Shown here piece after piece: positions 3,786 to 61,792 of a DNA stretch of 64,000 nucleotides. Source of the DNA: a phage; the sequence record OZ346201.1; one strand, 5' to 3'. Position numbers and translations under genes: made by a program. Each line of letters begins with the position of its first letter. Position 1 is the stretch's first letter. The notes below the pieces were generated by a model. It was not told the origin of the DNA, searched no databases, and was given only the letters and a program-made list of their open reading frames with translations.

Positions 3786-4829
3786 ATGACTAAACCAGTT
3801 ATCCCTCTTGATATTTGGGCCAATCAGGATGTTGTGCTTGAAAATACGGGAGAGTTGAATAAGTCTCAACCAAAAAAAGAAGAGAGATTGAAAGGTTGGG
3901 ATATGACACAAAGAGTGGCATGTGAAGTTGTTAACTTTGAACTTCACATGCTTTCTGCGTGGTTGAAGCATTTAACAGAAGATGTTGTCCCAGGATGGGA
4001 TAATAGATTCTTAAGGGTCACTAATAATCTAGCAGACGTTCCAGACAAAGCTGCTGCACGTCAAGTTCTCAATGTATACTCACCTGAAGAAATGGACGAT
4101 CTATATGTTGACAAGTCTGGAGACATAATGACTCAGACTCAAACTTTAGGTCTTCAAAGAATCGAGTTTGCATCTGCGTCAACAGACAGTGCGGCAATAT
4201 ATACCACCATAACTCCAGACAAGACGACGATGGATTTCTGGATTATGGACAACATCGGTGGTGCTGACGGCACAGACCTTGATGATCCTTCTCACCAAAT
4301 AGATGGGTTCCGTTGGAGATTTCAACCTTCTGGTGGGCAGCCTGTGTTTTCAGCTATGAAGCTCAATGCTATAACTGCCAACCGTGCAAGACTGGCTATC
4401 CAAGGAAATCTTGAATGCAACGATGCAAAAAGTTCCTCTGCAAATGCCAATGCGGTCACGATACCAAGAGCCACTGTTAATGGACAACAATCCTGCGGAA
4501 GCGCTCAAATAGGTGGAAGAGTTGATTGTAACGATGAAACCGTCAGGGGCCAATATGCAACAGTTGGTGGAAGAAACGTGGTCCGCAGGGTAAATGGTAA
4601 CGGCGCAGACAGTAGTGGTAACCTTACTATTCCTATGCCTAGCAGAGGGGTTGATGATGTAAGGATAGCAAACCGTTTCAAAACCACCTACAGAGAGTCA
4701 AGAGTCTACCCTGGACATGTGATGTGCTCTGGTAACTACGCTTATAAACACCCTTATCAAGGTGATTACTGGACAGGTGCTATCCAAAAACTTGTAAATG
4801 GTCAATGGATCACTATATCTTATGCTTAA
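3786..4829 (+). CDS. tail fibre protein, paralog 2
   Basis: SD AGGAGA; conserved N- and C-terminal ends shared with 1731..2771, different central domain; ATG at 3786 preferred over GTG at 3783. Confidence 0.75.
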   Translation: MTKPVIPLDIWANQDVVLENTGELNKSQPKKEERLKGWDMTQRVACEVVNFELHMLSAWLKHLTEDVVPGWDNRFLRVTNNLADVPDKAAARQVLNVYSPEEMDDLYVDKSGDIMTQTQTLGLQRIEFASASTDSAAIYTTITPDKTTMDFWIMDNIGGADGTDLDDPSHQIDGFRWRFQPSGGQPVFSAMKLNAITANRARLAIQGNLECNDAKSSSANANAVTIPRATVNGQQSCGSAQIGGRVDCNDETVRGQYATVGGRNVVRRVNGNGADSSGNLTIPMPSRGVDDVRIANRFKTTYRESRVYPGHVMCSGNYAYKHPYQGDYWTGAIQKLVNGQWITISYA

Positions 4830-4840
4830 AAAGAGGGTAA

Positions 4841-5107
4841 ATGAAACTAACTCAGTTTTTATGGGGACTGGTTGCGGCATCTGATGACCCTACGAAAGTA
4901 TCCCAAACTAAGCTATGGTCGAACATAGGCATGGCGGTGATGACTGGGGTGTTTATTCATATGGGGTATAATGATACGCTTCCTGAATGGTATGCGTGGA
5001 TATACGCGCCTTCAGTAGCTTGCCCCCAGCTTATTAGCAAATTCATCTCGCTCCGGTGGGGTTGCCAGCACCCTGACCACGTTAAAAACGAAGAGCAAAA
5101 AGCTTAA
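4841..5107 (+). CDS. small membrane protein (holin-like candidate, unproven)
   Basis: 88 aa with hydrophobic segments, SD GAGGG; embedded in fibre module. Confidence 0.45.
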   Translation: MKLTQFLWGLVAASDDPTKVSQTKLWSNIGMAVMTGVFIHMGYNDTLPEWYAWIYAPSVACPQLISKFISLRWGCQHPDHVKNEEQKA

Positions 5108-34672: not shown

Positions 34673-37012
34673 ATGAGTATGTGGTCTTTCGATTTTGAGT
34701 CATCCGGTTTGCTGGAAGACCCAGATCTTTATTATCACTGCGGTCTGTTTAAAGAGCTGAATAAGAACCGTTTTATGCTGTTCCTTCCTCTAAATGACCG
34801 CACACACTACTCCGAGGAGGATATAGAAAAGGCTAAGAACTTCATTCTGTCAAAGAAAACTCTTTATAAAGATTTTGAAGTTCGCATAGCAGATTTTTCG
34901 GAGTTGGAAGGTTGGCTTACAGGCAATTCTGACTGGTCACCAACAGCTTTGAACTGCCATAACTGCTACAGTTATGACTTTATGCTAATGGAAAGATTAT
35001 CCGGTATTCATTTTGATATGTTCCGTGATCCTAAATGCATGGGGACTATCAACGACCACCAGGTTAACCTGTTTGATACGTTGGCTATGAGCCGAATCTT
35101 GTGGCCTGATCGCCCTTTACCAAAAGGTTGTCCGGACGCTGTATTCAACCCGGTTACTAAGAAAATGCAACCTGTTGGTCCTCACGGCCTTATGGCATGG
35201 GGCTACGCCCTTGGTAACCAGAAAGTTCAAATTGATGACTGGCGCGATCTTCCGTTGTGGAAGTATGTGGATCGTGTATTCGAGGACGTTATCATCCAGG
35301 AGCTGCTCTGGAAAGAGCTGGTAGCGGAATCAAAAGGTGTATTCTACGGCAAATCTGACATGCAGAACTTTATGTACGATCCAGCCAAAGAGAAGCCGAA
35401 AGGGTTCAAGAAGATCACCTGGAAGAACGCATTACGTCGAGGCATGCTGCAGCACTTCCTGATGGAGCTGCAGGCCCGTCAGGGTGTATACTTCGACATA
35501 GATGGAGCTATTGCTTTACGTGACCGTTGCGATGCGTGGATGAAAGAAATCGCTGATCGTGTTGAACCACAACTACCTTTAAAAGAGCTGTCAATGTCTC
35601 AGCGGCCCAAGTTCCCTGAAAAGCCGTTTAACCAAGACGGGACAATCTCTAATAATGGTTGGAAATGGTTAAAAGATAAGCTTGGCTATCCTGTAGACAT
35701 GAGTGCTTTAGAGTTCAAAGCCCCGCCTAAGCGAGCATTTACCTCTACAGGAGATGTCAGCAAGATGGGGATAAAATGGTGTGAAGAGATGGGCTGCAAA
35801 GACCCCGATAAGATGGCTGATTTCTTGAGAGGCTATATTAAGGGCACCTCCACACCACAACCCTTACCTAAAGAGCTGATGGATCAGGCAATAAGTGATC
35901 TGCAGCAGAAGCGAATGCCTGACTGCAAGATACCTATGAAAATCAGCAATCAGGACGACATCAAGCGATACCTAATCAGTGCTGGTTGGCTCCCAACAAT
36001 GTGGAGAACTAAAGATGTAACTAAAGACAGCAAGAAGAAAGCTTTACCTGATGCAGATGTTGATGCACGAGTATATGCATATATGGACGAGCTTTTGGAG
36101 TCAGAGTATTGTGACCTAATTATCAACTTCTGGAACAAAACTGATGCTAAGTTCCAGACAACCGTGCACAAGTTCCGAAGCTTTCCTAACTCCGAAAGGA
36201 TTAAAAAGGAAGTATTCGGGAAAATACGTAGAAAAGCCAGGGCACTTATTACTTCTCCGCAACTGAAAGATACGTTTGGACACCTATGCCCAAATCTTGA
36301 AAAATTGAACGGAGAGATGGCTAAAGATATCGTCTTGTGGTTATCATTGCGAAACCGCAGATCGGTCCTTGATCCAATCAAGGAGGATAAGGTTGATACT
36401 GGTCTTCTTAATCACCCACGTTTGAAGATTGACCATAAGCTTCCTGCTAAAAGCTCTGGATTAACAAACACTTCCAGACAGAAACACAGTATTTGTGCAA
36501 ACATGCCTAAACCATCTCCTAAAGTGGTTATGGGTAAAGAGATGCGTAGTCTGTGGGGTGTTCCTCCGGGATACTTTGAGATTGGTATTGACGGGTCCAA
36601 CTTAGAACAGCTTATCGGGGCTTGGGGTGCCTTTGAGTTCGACAACGGCCTGTATTATGATGTTGTAAGTAACGGAGACGCACACCAAAACAATGCTGAG
36701 GCATATACAAAAGTGGCAGGCAGAGAGGTGTCCCGTAACGACGGTAAACCTATCACGTATGGGGTTATGTACGGGGCACAAAAAGATAAAGTTGCAGATA
36801 TGTTGGACATCTCCCCAGAGTTACAGGTGTTTGATGGACTCTGGGATGCCAACCCAGGTCTTAAGGGGCGCAAAGAGGATCTGGAGAAATTCTGGAAGCA
36901 ACAGGTAAGAAGTTTATCTACTCTTTTGATGGTCATGCTATCTGGACCCGATCTAAACACTCTTTACTTAATGCATACCAACAAAATGGCGGTGCATCGT
37001 TGTGTGACTTAG
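34673..37012 (+). CDS. DNA polymerase, family A, with 3'-5' exonuclease (reading frame breaks near 36900)
   Basis: Exo I FDFESSGL; Pol A motif A DGSNLEQ and motif B REVSRNDGKPITYGVMYGAQ; polymerase similarity continues in another frame from about 36901 to the stop at 37093-37095 (..FDGHAIW..NAYQQNGGASLCD..WYDEGV..). Confidence 0.75.
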   Translation: MSMWSFDFESSGLLEDPDLYYHCGLFKELNKNRFMLFLPLNDRTHYSEEDIEKAKNFILSKKTLYKDFEVRIADFSELEGWLTGNSDWSPTALNCHNCYSYDFMLMERLSGIHFDMFRDPKCMGTINDHQVNLFDTLAMSRILWPDRPLPKGCPDAVFNPVTKKMQPVGPHGLMAWGYALGNQKVQIDDWRDLPLWKYVDRVFEDVIIQELLWKELVAESKGVFYGKSDMQNFMYDPAKEKPKGFKKITWKNALRRGMLQHFLMELQARQGVYFDIDGAIALRDRCDAWMKEIADRVEPQLPLKELSMSQRPKFPEKPFNQDGTISNNGWKWLKDKLGYPVDMSALEFKAPPKRAFTSTGDVSKMGIKWCEEMGCKDPDKMADFLRGYIKGTSTPQPLPKELMDQAISDLQQKRMPDCKIPMKISNQDDIKRYLISAGWLPTMWRTKDVTKDSKKKALPDADVDARVYAYMDELLESEYCDLIINFWNKTDAKFQTTVHKFRSFPNSERIKKEVFGKIRRKARALITSPQLKDTFGHLCPNLEKLNGEMAKDIVLWLSLRNRRSVLDPIKEDKVDTGLLNHPRLKIDHKLPAKSSGLTNTSRQKHSICANMPKPSPKVVMGKEMRSLWGVPPGYFEIGIDGSNLEQLIGAWGAFEFDNGLYYDVVSNGDAHQNNAEAYTKVAGREVSRNDGKPITYGVMYGAQKDKVADMLDISPELQVFDGLWDANPGLKGRKEDLEKFWKQQVRSLSTLLMVMLSGPDLNTLYLMHTNKMAVHRCVT

Positions 37013-37095
37013 TTGGAATACTCATGCACCACCAGATGGTGAAGCGTGGGTGGTACGATGAAGGTGTTCGTCGTATTATTTATTACCATAAATAA

Positions 37096-37361
37096 CATTG
37101 TGGCTTCATAGAGTAATCTATGTCGAATAACCTCTTTAACTGCGGGAAGCCTAAACCTTATGGCAAGGTAATCCGCAACGAAGCGCTCAAAAGAGCGAAC
37201 GCTCAGAGGCCATTCCGAAAGGAAGTAGACCAGCAAGTGCGGTCGAAATGGGAGGATTCCTGTGGTTGCTTATCATAGGAATATGAGATGGTCCGATCCT
37301 ACGTGAAAACGTATGGCTATGCACGTAATGGTGCGGGTAGCTTAACGACCTACCTGAACTA
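37096..37361 (+). other. intervening segment inside the split DNA polymerase gene (intron or insertion candidate)
   Basis: Lies between the polymerase body and the ORF carrying the Pol A C-terminus; stops in the relevant frames; contains a ~52-codon ORF (MSNNLFNCGKPKPYG..). Confidence 0.4.
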
Positions 37362-46321: not shown

Positions 46322-46535
46322 TTGAATGATAATCATTCTCGTTTGCAGAATAACGGGCAGGCCCGGTGATTGTCTCCCGGCCCCTACTGCCCCGGCTTGT
46401 TATTATAGTATCACACAGGACAAAGAAAGCAAGGATTTTTTGCATAAATTTTTAAATGATAATGATAACCGTTCTCATTTTATGCAGCGCCCATCCCCGG
46501 TGGTTGTCTCCCCCGTCACCGGTGCCTGCCGTCCT
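46322..46535 (+). other. two copies of a conserved GC-rich structured element (candidate RNA structure or protein-binding site)
   Basis: AATGATAAT..GCAG..GGGCAGGCCCGGTGATTGTCTCCCGGCCCC at 46322-46395 and a diverged copy at 46452-46535; nested hairpin GGGCAG..CCGG-loop-CCGG..CTGCCC; third copy inverted at 56134-56162. Confidence 0.45.
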
Positions 46536-46735
46536 TTCGATAGGTATATCGTGCCACCTGGCGGGGCCGCTGTCAACACTTTTCAAAAAATTTTTCTAAC
46601 CTGATGCGCTAACCGCTGCAACCTGGCGGGGTCAGCCTGGCAGGACCTAACTGACCGGGTAGGAGAGAATGAAGGCTTGTAAACCTGGTGGGCCTATGCT
46701 ACAGGATAGGTAACAATTGAAGAGGAGGTACAAAA

Positions 46736-57007: not shown

Positions 57008-57427
57008 ATGAACATTAAATCTAATAATCCGGCATATAGCTTTGATAACGCTTTTTGTCACGGTCCGGCGGCGAAAGGATTCGAAATCGATGGTAAACTA
57101 ATTATTGTCAATGTTGACGGGGAAGAGGTTGCAGTATATCCGGTGGCAGACGTAAAAAGCCGTTTACAATGCCGCATGGATGTTACCGCCTATCAGCTTG
57201 ATCCGGTCCGCATAGTTGCCCTGGTCCTGGAAGAAGAAATTAAAGCCATGCACCATAGCAACAGATTTATTGGTGACGCGCAGGATAATATGAAAGTATG
57301 CCGCCATAAAGTTAATGAAGTGCTTAAAGAGTACGGCTATAAAGATCTTATGATCAAACGTGAGGAAAAATTCCGCTACCGTAACGACCTGGCAAATCGG
57401 ATTTTTGAAATATACGAATCATTATAA
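57008..57427 (+). CDS. hypothetical protein
   Basis: 139 aa, SD AAGAGG; last rightward gene before the 2.4-kb non-coding region. Confidence 0.55.
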   Translation: MNIKSNNPAYSFDNAFCHGPAAKGFEIDGKLIIVNVDGEEVAVYPVADVKSRLQCRMDVTAYQLDPVRIVALVLEEEIKAMHHSNRFIGDAQDNMKVCRHKVNEVLKEYGYKDLMIKREEKFRYRNDLANRIFEIYESL

Positions 57428-57446
57428 TTTTTTAACTGAATTATCA

Positions 57447-57470
57447 AGGGGCTTAGGCCCCTTTCTTTTT
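57447..57470 (+). terminator. rho-independent terminator
   Basis: AGGGGC-TTAG-GCCCCT followed by TTCTTTTT. Confidence 0.85.
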
Positions 57471-57479
57471 GTCTGCTCT

Positions 57480-59880
57480 TCCCCCTACCATAAACGGCCC
57501 TACCTGGCAAGTGGAATAATTGACGAGCCATCAATCCCACACACTGTACAAATATACATGTAAAATAACTATTGCATAACCTTTCATTGTGTGGTAGCGG
57601 TGCTATTTTTTACCTGTTTTCCTTCCAAAATTGCACGTAATGCAGCTATTGCACAAAATTTAACCTGATGCACATCTCCAATATCCTGTCAACAACTAAA
57701 AATCTTTATAAGTCATACACTTACACAGCATCGAAAGCGTGTTCTACGCGAAAAATCGAGTATAACTATAGCCGCCAGATCTCAGAATTCACGTACGCAC
57801 GCCATTCTATAGCCTGCAAAGTATTTATTCCAACCACAGAATAACGGAATAGTCAATACCTGAATAAAATAATTATTCGTTTAAACTGCATAACATAAAT
57901 CAGCTCAGGTGTCAACATTTTTCGTAAACAGTCTGAAATTGTCACTGTGAGTTATCATAAACAGAGAAATCTTTAGTCGTATAATGTTTACTGTACGTTA
58001 CTATACTGACTGGAATCATTAGATGACTAATAGAAAGATAAGAAATAATTAACAATACAATTATTTTACCTGTAACAATAAGACAACTATGCAAACGAAT
58101 GGCATGGCGCGACGGAGTCGCGACATAATATAAAAGCAGTAACCATCACCCCCGTGATGGTTTGTCTGCAATCTATTAATCAGATCATAGTTGCCTTGTA
58201 TTCAGTTAATCATGACATAATAAGCAAGGCAACTATAGATCTGCTAATAGTTGCCCTGCTTTTATATTATGTCATATATTATTAACTTGTTAATTGTTAA
58301 CTTGCTAATTGTTTTCATGCAAACGAATGTCATGGCTTATCCTATCTGTGTAAACAGTTAAGGTGTAAACTATCCAGGCGTAAACAGTCTATGCGGGAAC
58401 AATCTATACGTGAACAGTGAAACATGAAATAATAACAGTCGTTATTGTGTCGAAAGTGTATAAGGTGTCAGACAAGTTTTTCTCCTCTTTGTCAAGTGCT
58501 GCATGAAAAATTTACAAGCTTGTATGGTAGCATTTTTGCGGCCCTGTTTACATTCAGCGATGTATGTATAATCCTTGTTGTGTGGGCGTTTAGACGTCTA
58601 GACGGTCAGAAGTCTGCAGGTTAATACCTAATCTATCGGCTGCTAACTATATCCCACACAAATAGTAAGAAATATAATTGTTATGTGCGTAAACAGTAAC
58701 TCATGTTATCAATCCCTGTATGTATCGCCAGTGGTGCGCATAATGGGTATTATGTTAAATTGCCCGTAATGATAACTATTCTCACAATGATAGGTATTCT
58801 CATTCACTCCCACAAGATAGGTTGCAAATGTTGTGCCACTGTGTGAACGGCCTAACCTATTAATTTGCCTCACTGCCTCGATATTTGAGAATTGTTATAA
58901 GAATGAGAAGTATTCCCATTTCGTCCGCCTGGCAGCACTCCAGTCGCTACCGCTCATGACAGGGCAGAACTAGACCCTCTTCAGATATTTCTGGCTGACT
59001 CTTCAGGTCTGTGTGGGAAAAGCCAACCTCTCCGGCGGCGGGGAGGGGGTCAATTAAAAAAAATTACGTGGTGCATGAAGCGCTCTTCAGGTAAGGCATG
59101 TGTTATGGGATGAAACCCTCTTCAGGCAATGATATTTGTGGGTGTGATATTTGCTGGAAAGCCAGATATGACGGGACTCCTGGCGGGGCAGGGGTAGTAC
59201 AGACAGGGAAAATATGGGGGATGTAGTTGGGGAAATTGATCAGACAGGTAGAGTATGGAATATGTTACAAGTATGTTAAATAGGGAGGATGAATATCTGC
59301 AGGATTTGTGTGTAAAATCAAAGACTTAAGTGGTGTTGTGGTATTTTCTATAAATAATTCAAGTTTAATAGGTAATATTTGTCTCTATCCACTTTGTGTG
59401 GTAAACAGATTCAGATGAAATTGGTTTACAAGTGTATACATAATATACAAATTAAAGATACAAGAAACCCCCCTCCCCCTTCGGCTACCATTCACCTTTT
59501 CCTCTGACTGGTACTTAAACACTTATTCAGACTCTTCAGGTTATCACCCATATATCATATGGCAGTGACTGGTGTCCTCCGGCCCCTCTTTCGTCACCCG
59601 TCCGCTTCGCCATGCTAATGCCATAGCCAATGGTTCGGTTGTTCACTCTGTTCACTCAGGTGTATCTCCATACCCCTTCAAACCGAAGAGACAAAATCCT
59701 AATTACTCGGTAAAAGAAAAGAGAAGAACTTAATTTTATCAGGATAGGCAAGAATGTCAAGGCATGACTGCTCACTAAACAAGCAAACAGTCATGTGTGG
59801 AAGGTAAGTGATTGTGGTGGTGGGAAATTTAGTTGAAAGATGTGTTATAGGTGCGCTTCCAGCACTTTGGCCGGGCAGCT
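57480..59880. other. 2.4-kb ORF-free, repeat-rich region between convergent gene blocks (candidate origin / packaging / control region)
   Basis: No ORF of 60 aa or more on either strand; six CTCTTCAG(G) copies (58.97-60.18 kb); about nine GTAAACAG-like copies (57.9-59.4 kb); inverted TAGTTGCC and GACATAATA motifs at 58.1-58.3 kb. Confidence 0.6.
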
Positions 59881-59889
59881 AATTGTGTG

Positions 59890-60105
59890 TCAGTCCAGCG
59901 GTTCATCCTCTACTTCACTGAAATCAATGTTCATGGTCTCCTCCCAACCATCGATCTCAGCACAAGAGTGGAGTTCTTTAGGGTTTACTCCCAAAGCCTC
60001 AGCAACAGAGTCTATATTTAACACCTCTGGCAGGTATGATTCATCGAATTCAAGGTAAATCAGGCCACGAGTGTTGTCAGCTCCACCAAATATCTCTATC
60101 TTCAT
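59890..60105 (-). CDS. hypothetical acidic small protein
   Basis: 71 aa, SD GAGGAG upstream on minus strand. Confidence 0.5.
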   Translation of the reverse strand: MKIEIFGGADNTRGLIYLEFDESYLPEVLNIDSVAEALGVNPKELHSCAEIDGWEETMNIDFSEVEDEPLD

Positions 60106-60224
60106 GAAATCTCCTCTGGAAATGAGAGTGTGAACAGGGTTTTATACGTTCTAATGCACAGGAATTATACACGTTTGCCTCTTCAGGCCATGCTTTAGCA
60201 TGAGGAACTTGTGGGCTCGGTGCT

Positions 60225-61432: not shown

Positions 61433-61454
61433 CTCAAATCTCCTTCATAGATAG

Positions 61455-61480
61455 AAAAAAGAGGGGCCCAAGCCCCCTCT
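61455..61480 (-). terminator. minus-strand rho-independent terminator
   Basis: GAGGGG..CCCCTC hairpin with A6 on plus strand (T6 on minus) downstream of 61487..61792. Confidence 0.7.
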
Positions 61481-61486
61481 TTGTCA

Positions 61487-61792
61487 TTATTCTACAGAGC
61501 GTTTGAACAGAATGTCTGCCTCAGACATGTGCTCAACCTCTTCTTCGATTTTAGCGCGACGTTTTTCAGCCTCATAGCGAATATCGAACTCGGTAGCCAC
61601 CAGAGATTTGATGAATTTAGGAGAATACAGGTGATCCTGCTTCTCAACGAGAATGATATCCTTAATGGCATCTTTCAGATCTTTAATCTGAAGTTGGAGT
61701 TCTACCAGTTCTTCGATTGTTTTGCGAAGGCGATCACGCTCTGCAGTGTCAGAAGGAAGAGAGGTGAACAGTTCAACTTTAGATTTAGCCAT
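61487..61792 (-). CDS. hypothetical coiled-coil protein
   Basis: 101 aa, charged heptad-like sequence. Confidence 0.5.
   Translation of the reverse strand: MAKSKVELFTSLPSDTAERDRLRKTIEELVELQLQIKDLKDAIKDIILVEKQDHLYSPKFIKSLVATEFDIRYEAEKRRAKIEEEVEHMSEADILFKRSVE

Follow-up and report, generated by a model that had tools for sequence, protein, structure and literature searches.

Phage genome ends and the rV5 'non-coding' box

How the ends of phage chromosomes with short direct terminal repeats (DTRs) are recognized, cut and copied is known mainly from work on T7-like podoviruses. In T7 concatemers, the small terminase subunit recognizes PacB and the large subunit cleaves at PacC (PMC9860248). The repeat must also be duplicated, and hairpin DNA containing it has been seen in infection (PMC4281155, citing Chung and Hinkle 1990). 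Here we describe the region at positions 57480-59880 of a 64-kb stretch of phage DNA (sequence record OZ346201.1), which as a whole is called the window. This region is probably the genome-end, or concatemer-junction, and packaging region of a short-DTR phage of the genus Vequintavirus, comparable to that of T7.

Related terminal regions have been described in other large phages. Klebsiella phage KPP-1, from the sister genus Mydovirus of the same subfamily (Vequintavirinae), has a 514-bp DTR that is backed by twofold coverage and PhageTerm (PMC9862379). Near the genome end of T5, the injection-stop-signal region forms a large untranslated stretch rich in repeats, inverted repeats and palindromes (bioRxiv 10.1101/866236). 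For rV5, the published map (Kropinski et al. 2013) draws the locus studied here as a grey 'non-coding' box without open reading frames (ORFs). Its authors described sigma-70-type promoters and expected bidirectional terminators between genes 163 and 164, where two transcription units converge, but found none (PMC3606486).

A nucleotide search with about 3 kb around the finding matched 122 phage records at about 88-95% identity, all of them rV5-like; in the rV5 reference the finding sits between ORF 164 and ORF 163. On nucleotide similarity, the window phage is an rV5-like coliphage of the genus Vequintavirus. Pfam identified a DnaB-like primase-helicase, a PIF1 helicase and a DNA methylase among the large ORFs of the window, which fits the early/replication block of rV5; the Pfam scans of these large ORFs gave replication genes only, and the terminase gene is located outside the window. 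At least 80% of the region is covered at one place in 102 of the 122 matching records, and IMG/VR contained only one matching contig.

The repeat itself has been published and is annotated in a few records. Our search of the literature found no paper placing it in the rV5 'non-coding' box or describing the flanking arrays, the palindrome and the invariant block presented below. Phages of the rV5 type are widely used in Escherichia coli cocktails and collections, and most of their approximately 120 GenBank records are opened at arbitrary points. Placing the true ends in the 'non-coding' box would give a common, biologically correct start point for annotation, and correct ends matter when genomes are rebooted or engineered, since the ends and packaging signals then have to be preserved. 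The concrete, testable cis-elements named here, i.e., two cut sites, two flanking arrays, a palindrome and an invariant block, make end recognition, cutting and copying addressable in a large short-DTR myovirus.

The 459-bp terminal repeat and its boundaries

The two ends of the GenBank records of YN3 (458 bp) and EdH4 (459 bp) are identical, with 0 mismatches, and both map to 58471-58929 of the window. HdK5, Gotham and ECP2309 likewise hold two end copies, which brings the number of such relatives to five. Gotham annotates a repeat_region at 1-459 and 136567-137025, and 458-bp terminal redundancies were reported for EdH4 and HdK5 (Korf et al. 2019; PMC6563267). In the distant search, several records turned out to begin or end within the region. 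Records with a single copy also open at the repeat: Pr121LW and EcoIv14a_Aya begin exactly at 58471, and bov10K2 and bov22_2, in the opposite orientation, begin exactly at 58929. Both boundaries are common to the base among records from several laboratories.

We aligned the region in 16 genomes, namely the window, 14 GenBank relatives and the IMG/VR contig; counts out of 16 refer to this alignment throughout. The repeat is 458-460 bp long in all of them and almost free of indels, and 17% of its columns vary; indel hot spots adjoin both of its boundaries. The left boundary reads TGTCA↓GACAAG (TGTCA↓GACAAGTTTTTCTCC; the arrow marks the cut) without variation and places the cut at the center of the 9-bp palindrome TGTC-A-GACA. 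The right boundary, equally invariant, reads CGTCCGCC↓TGGCAG, with the cut beside the center of GCC-T-GGC. As judged from these records, 58471-58929 is the short DTR at both ends of the packaged linear DNA, with boundaries that are base-exact across isolates. The relatives' records have both features of the short-DTR, fixed-end class, a repeat at both ends and the same end nucleotides. The features of the region are collected in Table 1.

Table 1. Features in and next to the region (window coordinates; the arrow marks the presumed cut)
Feature	Position	Strand	Description
Intrinsic terminator	57446..57470	+	Stem AAGGGGC/GCCCCTT (57446-57463) followed by a T-run; closes the rightward early/replication block
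Left non-coding stretch	57471..58088		Adjoins the right end of virion DNA; moderately conserved, almost no indels; 29% of columns vary (16 genomes)
Palindrome module between 20-nt direct repeats	58089..58336		Repeats at 58089-58108 and 58317-58336
152-nt branched palindrome	58122..58273		Two hairpins inside a perfect 18-bp outer stem; lies 200 bp to the left of the DTR
GTRAACAGT iteron array, 15-bp period	58348..58418	+	1-11 copies; the 16 genomes are otherwise 90-95% identical
(T/G)GTGTC(A) short repeats up to the left cut site	58436..58470	+	Repeat number varies; TGTCAGACAAGTTTTTCTCC invariant in 16/16 genomes
DTR of the virion chromosome	58471..58929		459 bp; same repeat at both ends of relatives' records
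Three operator-like sites ATGAKAA-N3-TTCTCAY in the DTR	58769-58785, 58787-58803, 58903-58919		Half-sites kept, central 3 bases vary
Right cut-site flank	58930..58975	+	7-bp palindrome GCC↓TGGC at the boundary, then 1-2 CTCC-containing units (pattern count)
Three conserved CTCTTCAGG sites	58999, 59083, 59118 (58999..59126)	+	Kept in 15/16, 14/16 and 16/16 genomes
Nearly invariant 385-bp block	59466..59850		7.8% of columns vary (2.1% in two or more of 16 genomes)
CCTGAAGAG (complement of CTCTTCAGG) just upstream of TGTATAAT	60151..60187	-	Outside the region; before gene 59890-60105

Three operator-like sites are found in the repeat, the last of which ends 10 bp from the right genome end. Conserved half-sites around a varying spacer are typical of a dimeric binding site, which suggests that these could be bound by a dimeric protein. 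Two strong copies of the same motif, GAATGATAATCATTCTCGT and ATGATAATGATAACCGTTCTCAT, are present at 46325-46343 and 46459-46478, each heading a GC-rich unit of about 135 bp within a 92-amino-acid (aa) ORF (46326-46604, phrog_14993). By hand count, each copy matches the E. coli Fur-box consensus at 16 of 19 positions, and host Fur or a phage regulator could bind there.

In phage I29 (ON286975.1), an apparent tandem copy of the repeat turned out to be a partial duplication of 58713-59257 joined via a 60-bp inverted piece. It is probably a misassembly at the terminal repeat and was set aside.

Repeat arrays, palindrome and invariant block beside the repeat

The earlier note on this DNA had pointed to two main groups of repeated motifs, and both were recovered. 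For the first, approximately nine GTAAACAG-like motifs had been counted. Nine of the 25 one-mismatch matches to GTAAACAGT in the window fall at 57924-59791, and it is this clustering that stands out, not the window count, which does not differ significantly from shuffled sequence (17.3 +/- 4.2). The exact 8-mer GTAAACAG, counted on both strands, occurs six times in the region versus once in the other 61.6 kb. Its densest array ends approximately 50 bp left of the DTR. Isolated sites of this type occur at 57924, which is kept in 12 of the 16 genomes, at 57957 and, on the minus strand, at 57983, which is kept in all 16; others are found within the DTR (58543 on the minus strand, and 58689) and further out.

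The second group comprises six copies of CTCTTCAG(G), all on the plus strand, at 58977 (CTCTTCAGA), 58999, 59083, 59118, 59532 and 60179; the copy at 58977 is kept in only 2/16 genomes. Exact CTCTTCAGG occurs six times in 64 kb, five of them at 58999-60187 on the plus strand. With at most one mismatch, the window gives 34 matches versus 13.8 +/- 3.5 in shuffled sequence, and none of 100 shuffles reached 34, a strong enrichment. The CTCTTCAGG group starts approximately 70 bp right of the DTR, or approximately 48 bp if the non-conserved copy at 58977 is counted, and the spacer between the end of the DTR and the first conserved site measures 68-136 bp. Thus, the two main motif groups bracket the DTR. 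The intervals between the conserved CTCTTCAGG sites contain a GC-rich hairpin (59027-59049), an A8 run and a hot spot for insertions. As for the CTCC units next to the right cut site, a three-copy form was read by eye in JEP1.

The inverted TAGTTGCC and GACATAATA motifs that had also been pointed out belong to a palindrome built of an 18-nt perfect pair (58122-58139 and 58256-58273) with nested repeats of 12-15 nt. Its folds have predicted energies of -78.8 and -82.6 kcal/mol (z = -11.1 and -12.2), and none of 200 shuffles was as stable. Both arms are invariant in 15 of the 16 genomes. Each inner hairpin is followed by the tail CTGCTTTTATATT on its own strand, so that the pair resembles back-to-back terminators: the minus-strand terminator lies at 58162-58141, and a plus-strand terminator is annotated here in Murica. 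From its sequence, the module can be read as the 'missing' bidirectional terminator of the rV5 paper. It is present in 118 Vequintavirus records, always in a single copy, and in no other genus, and no match was found in 5,426 E. coli genomes. A host origin or a mobile element was therefore rejected as its source, as the module has no E. coli match, is single-copy and is confined to the genus.

The 385-bp block on the right is nearly invariant. Variation elsewhere amounts to 29-39% of the columns in non-coding parts other than the DTR and about 9-19% in flanking genes. In 113 of 119 records the block is 95-99% identical to that of the window, which itself has a few private changes. Within the block are a CTCTTCAGG site (59532), TGTTCACYC in tandem (59640-59657) and, on the minus strand, a strong sigma-70-like promoter (59760-59733; TTGACA-N16-TAAAAT preceded by TG, 11/12 consensus positions) that is invariant in 14/16 genomes and points toward the DTR. 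As predicted from the sequence, transcription starting at the promoter would run through the right arrays, the DTR and the iterons before reaching the minus-strand terminator at 58162-58141. A structured RNA was not detected in the block, the fold of which is no more stable than that of shuffles on either strand (z of 0.37 and -0.09). The window alone carries a 3-nt deletion and three substitutions at 59690-59703 in the block. Two of these substitutions would be synonymous in a plus-frame ORF, 59572-59733. A gene at this ORF was rejected for too little evidence: it has a GTG start and no ribosome-binding site, and non-synonymous changes are present at 59628-59632.

These elements suggest the following scheme. 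Replication would join genomes head to tail via one shared copy of the repeat. The terminase, possibly with an accessory DNA-binding protein, would recognize the junction by the arrays of short repeats to its left and right and cut at TGTCA↓GACAAG to form the left end and at CGTCCGCC↓TGGCAG to form the right end. For every packaged genome to end up with two copies, the repeat would have to be duplicated, which is the accepted view for T7. The palindrome of 152 nt may stop convergent transcription in both directions, give a hairpin or cruciform intermediate for copying of the repeat, or do both. The invariant block with its outward promoter may be a further cis-element, at which packaging is initiated, replication originates or a junction-crossing transcript starts. 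By analogy with known systems, the motifs are inferred to be terminase sites. A more far-reaching proposal, namely that in large rV5-group myoviruses the short terminal repeats are matured by a dedicated and hitherto undescribed junction apparatus, with the palindrome as hairpin or cruciform copying intermediate, the 385-bp block as cis-element and the promoter coupling transcription to end formation by a transcript that spans the concatemer junction, is speculative, and we consider it improbable as a whole.

The scheme has counterparts in other phages. Repeated binding motifs beside a terminase cleavage site are found in lambda (cosB R-sites with IHF), SPP1 (pacL/pacR) and P1 (pac hexamers). 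Those phages have cohesive ends or headful DNA and not exact terminal repeats, and motif binding is putative in our case. The closest likeness is to the T7 junction with its 160-bp repeat, with which the region shares a short exact direct repeat at both ends, fixed cut sites and, presumably, the need for the repeat to be copied. In T7, the cis sites recognized by the small terminase lie beside the repeat; here, arrays occur on both sides, GTRAACAGT and GTGTC on the left and CTCC and CTCTTCAGG on the right, and a role in recognition is inferred for them. The T7 repeat is likewise said to be flanked on both sides by short-repeat arrays (reportedly described by Dunn and Studier in 1983), to which the iterons and CTCC units may be compared. 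Unlike T7, the rV5-like phage is a 137-kb myovirus without a phage RNA polymerase, and its repeat has 459 bp and approximately 1 kb of non-coding DNA on each side. The neighboring genes point toward the ends, whereas the early genes of T7 read inward from the left end. No nucleotide similarity to the T7 junction was detected, and distant blastn searches with the region found only Vequintavirus. To judge by the sequences, the resemblance to T7 is one in mode of working and not in descent.

A similar arrangement is found in KPP-1, the DTR of which lies at a convergent junction of approximately 1.8 kb, without annotated ORFs apart from two tiny ones. Approximately 310 bp from this DTR is a branched palindrome (4639-4844 in MT438396.1; DNA fold z = -9.6), the arms of which are perfect over 21 nt. 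It holds ATGATAA-N3-TTATCAT at 4741 and 4799, and a third copy lies just outside, at 4943. Its tails are not U-rich, and no sequence similarity to the window palindrome was detected. The presence of analogous palindromes in two genera hints at a DNA-level role beside the repeat. In KPP-1, CTCTTCAGG is found within the DTR and the ATGATAA-N3-TTATCAT sites beside it; there is no GTRAACAG array, with one copy near the DTR. No nucleotide similarity was detected between the KPP-1 and window loci, and the proteins of their flanking small genes, compared in order to orient one locus against the other, are unrelated.

Several observations weigh against a genome-end and packaging region. The ends derive from relatives' records plus one sentence in a paper, and some of the later submitters may have done no more than turn their records to agree with earlier ones. 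Vequintavirus genomes have been called circularly permuted or headful-packaged by PhageTerm (PMC8407724, PMC13211470); the revised records from PMC8407724 nevertheless begin exactly at the DTR boundary. The iteron count varies from 1 to 11, and FV3 lacks exactly 228 bp, from one 20-nt repeat to the other, which means that the palindrome module can be lost by recombination in a sequenced isolate. Neither the iterons nor the module is therefore strictly required in full form. Finally, CTCTTCAGG also overlaps ordinary promoter-like sites outside the region and may for this reason be transcriptional and not related to packaging. In our view, the base-exact coincidence of boundaries across laboratories and record orientations outweighs the permuted or headful software calls.

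Among the functions that the earlier note had listed without ranking, a terminal-repeat boundary and a packaging site are upheld by the 459-bp DTR and the motif groups beside it. A cluster of phage-RNA-polymerase promoters is not supported, because rV5 is described with sigma-70-type promoters (PMC3606486) and the four internal CTCTTCAGG sites have no consistent downstream element.

Coding content, rival explanations and neighboring genes

The region is truly non-coding. As the earlier note had stated, it contains no ORF of 60 aa or more: the longest wholly internal ORF has 59 aa, and a 67-aa GTG ORF (57360-57563) overlaps the left edge only and begins within the upstream gene. No other 2.4-kb stretch of the window is as poor in ORFs, which is weak evidence by itself, since 8% of mononucleotide shuffles likewise have no ORF of 60 aa. 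The GC content is 0.38-0.39 versus 0.42-0.47 elsewhere in the window. None of the 27 internal ORFs of at least 25 aa showed an excess of variable sites at third codon positions in the 16 genomes, a test that has little power within the invariant block. The only internal ORF that is intact in all 16 genomes, 58703-58846, has 6/11/9 variable sites by codon position, and another has 3/2/5; six flanking genes used as controls gave 1/3/23, 7/2/33, 5/3/29, 8/5/27, 6/2/22 and 11/5/45. The internal ORFs have no PHROG match, whereas all flanking genes do, and the small ORFs called in the region differ from annotator to annotator, which gives them the look of chance ORFs. Rfam 15 yielded no match in 57480-59880, either at E values up to 1 in a scan of 55-64 kb or at gathering score in the whole window, and a tRNA scan found no tRNA in the region. 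In all 16 genomes the region is approximately 2.3-2.6 kb long, inside an otherwise tightly packed genome.

Explanations other than a genome-end region were weighed against this evidence. A mainly transcriptional role, in which CTCTTCAGG/CCTGAAGAG and GTRAACAG would be operator or activator boxes for a phage regulator, the palindrome the missing bidirectional terminator and the minus-strand promoter at 59760 the source of a non-coding RNA of approximately 1.6 kb with its end at the palindrome, is possible, although we hold it to be rather unlikely. It would account for the overlap of CCTGAAGAG with the -35 zone of sigma-70-like promoters, both at 60187-60151 and at 2533-2563 in KPP-1 (MT438396.1; TTGACCTGAAGAG-N10-TATACT), and for the location of a GTGAACAG site (60130) between the former promoter and the ribosome-binding site of gene 59890-60105. 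The CTCTTCAGG/CCTGAAGAG and GTGAACAG-type motifs could accordingly be bound by a phage protein that serves in transcription as well. The conserved promoter at 59760-59733, the U-rich-tailed terminator-like hairpins on both strands of the palindrome and a conserved 101-aa PHROG 'transcriptional regulator' encoded 1.6 kb away point in the same direction. However, when the four internal CTCTTCAGG sites are read as promoter boxes, neither strand offers a -10 element at a consistent spacing, and Rfam was negative in the region, where the conserved block folds no better than shuffles. A plus-strand promoter-like site at 57958-57985 has TATAAT in this window alone, most genomes having TCTAAT. Such a role would also leave unexplained why genomes end here and why indel hot spots adjoin the boundaries. 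It is compatible with a genome-end region and not a replacement for it.

That the region is or contains a replication origin, with an initiator acting on the GTRAACAGT iterons, melting of AT-rich DNA and a palindrome for loading or priming, appears unlikely to us, and such an origin may coexist with transcriptional functions. The iterons repeat in tandem at a regular period of 15 bp, the GC content drops from about 0.44, the palindrome is strongly structured, and the cumulative GC skew peaks near 59-61 kb. The rV5 authors sought an origin and found skew switches here, but they noted that these coincide with changes in transcription direction (PMC3606486). In T7, according to the title of a cited paper, packaging substrates need an origin plus the junction. 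On the other side, the number of iterons is not fixed among near-identical phages, and their period sets successive sites on different faces of the helix. The neighboring genes encode no initiator-like domain, and no coding ORF lies inside the region. An exact DnaA box is missing, boxes with one mismatch are in weak excess (eight in the region), and neither DnaA boxes nor IHF sites are enriched in the region. Moreover, transcription converges at the site and does not diverge. An injection-control region that pauses DNA entry near the first-entering end, like the T5 injection stop signal, is very improbable. Vequintaviruses and T5-like phages are both highly sensitive to early-acting DNA intercalators (PMC13250531). 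However, the T5 signal is part of a repeat of approximately 10 kb that carries pre-early genes and eight ordered DnaA boxes, whereas the 459-bp repeat has no genes and no exact DnaA box. In addition, the genes by both ends are transcribed toward the ends, so that the first-entering segment would express nothing. Least credible of all is a lack of function, i.e., decaying or recombination-scarred DNA between gene blocks with repeats made by slippage. The array copy numbers vary freely, FV3 tolerates its 228-bp loss, and variable columns are more frequent in the left and middle-right stretches (29-35%) than in the flanking genes. Yet conservation equal to that of coding sequence or better is seen (16-119 genomes) in the DTR, at both cut sites, in the arms of the palindrome, at three to four CTCTTCAGG sites and in the 385-bp block, and the region is retained in 16/16 genomes despite tight packing.

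The genes around the region form two units that converge on it. The terminator that the earlier note had located at 57447-57470 consists of a hairpin at 57446-57463 plus a T-run and is also annotated in Murica, EdH4 and Gotham. Gene 59890-60105, on the minus strand, is real (phrog_12108, E value of 2e-52; 8/5/27 variable sites by codon position). It had been taken for the first leftward gene, as in a divergent pair; because the two transcription units converge here, it is instead the last gene of the leftward unit. On the other side lies the 139-aa gene 57008-57427 (plus strand; phrog_12277, ORF 164 of rV5). EdH4, Gotham, FV3 and VB-EcoM-WM lack this gene, and their terminator directly follows the 87-aa gene.

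The 101-aa protein, encoded on the minus strand at 61487-61792, is a member of phrog_639 ('transcriptional regulator') without a Pfam match. Its identity is 99% or more across 115 of the matching phage records, against 42-58% in the Klebsiella, Salmonella and Cronobacter relatives, and it is a candidate binder of the repeated motifs. We used this conserved regulator to look for the junction in Seunavirus/Certrevirus, where its gene does not lie beside a convergent junction. A weak Rfam match to sraA at 61449-61542 (minus strand; 27.4 bits versus a gathering score of 56, E value of 0.69) is most likely due to chance.

Two further observations concern the records and the window at large. Eighteen to 19 of the rV5-like GenBank matches (MG0656xx) are titled 'Campylobacter phage'; the one that was opened, C9, is marked UNVERIFIED. 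Given their similarity to rV5, these records are evidently coliphage sequences under a wrong host name. Lastly, a group I intron is predicted at 37080-37315 on the plus strand (RF00028, 64.7 bits versus a gathering score of 50, E value of 4e-14), just 3' of a 779-aa ORF without a Pfam match (34673-37012), and its host gene is probably split.

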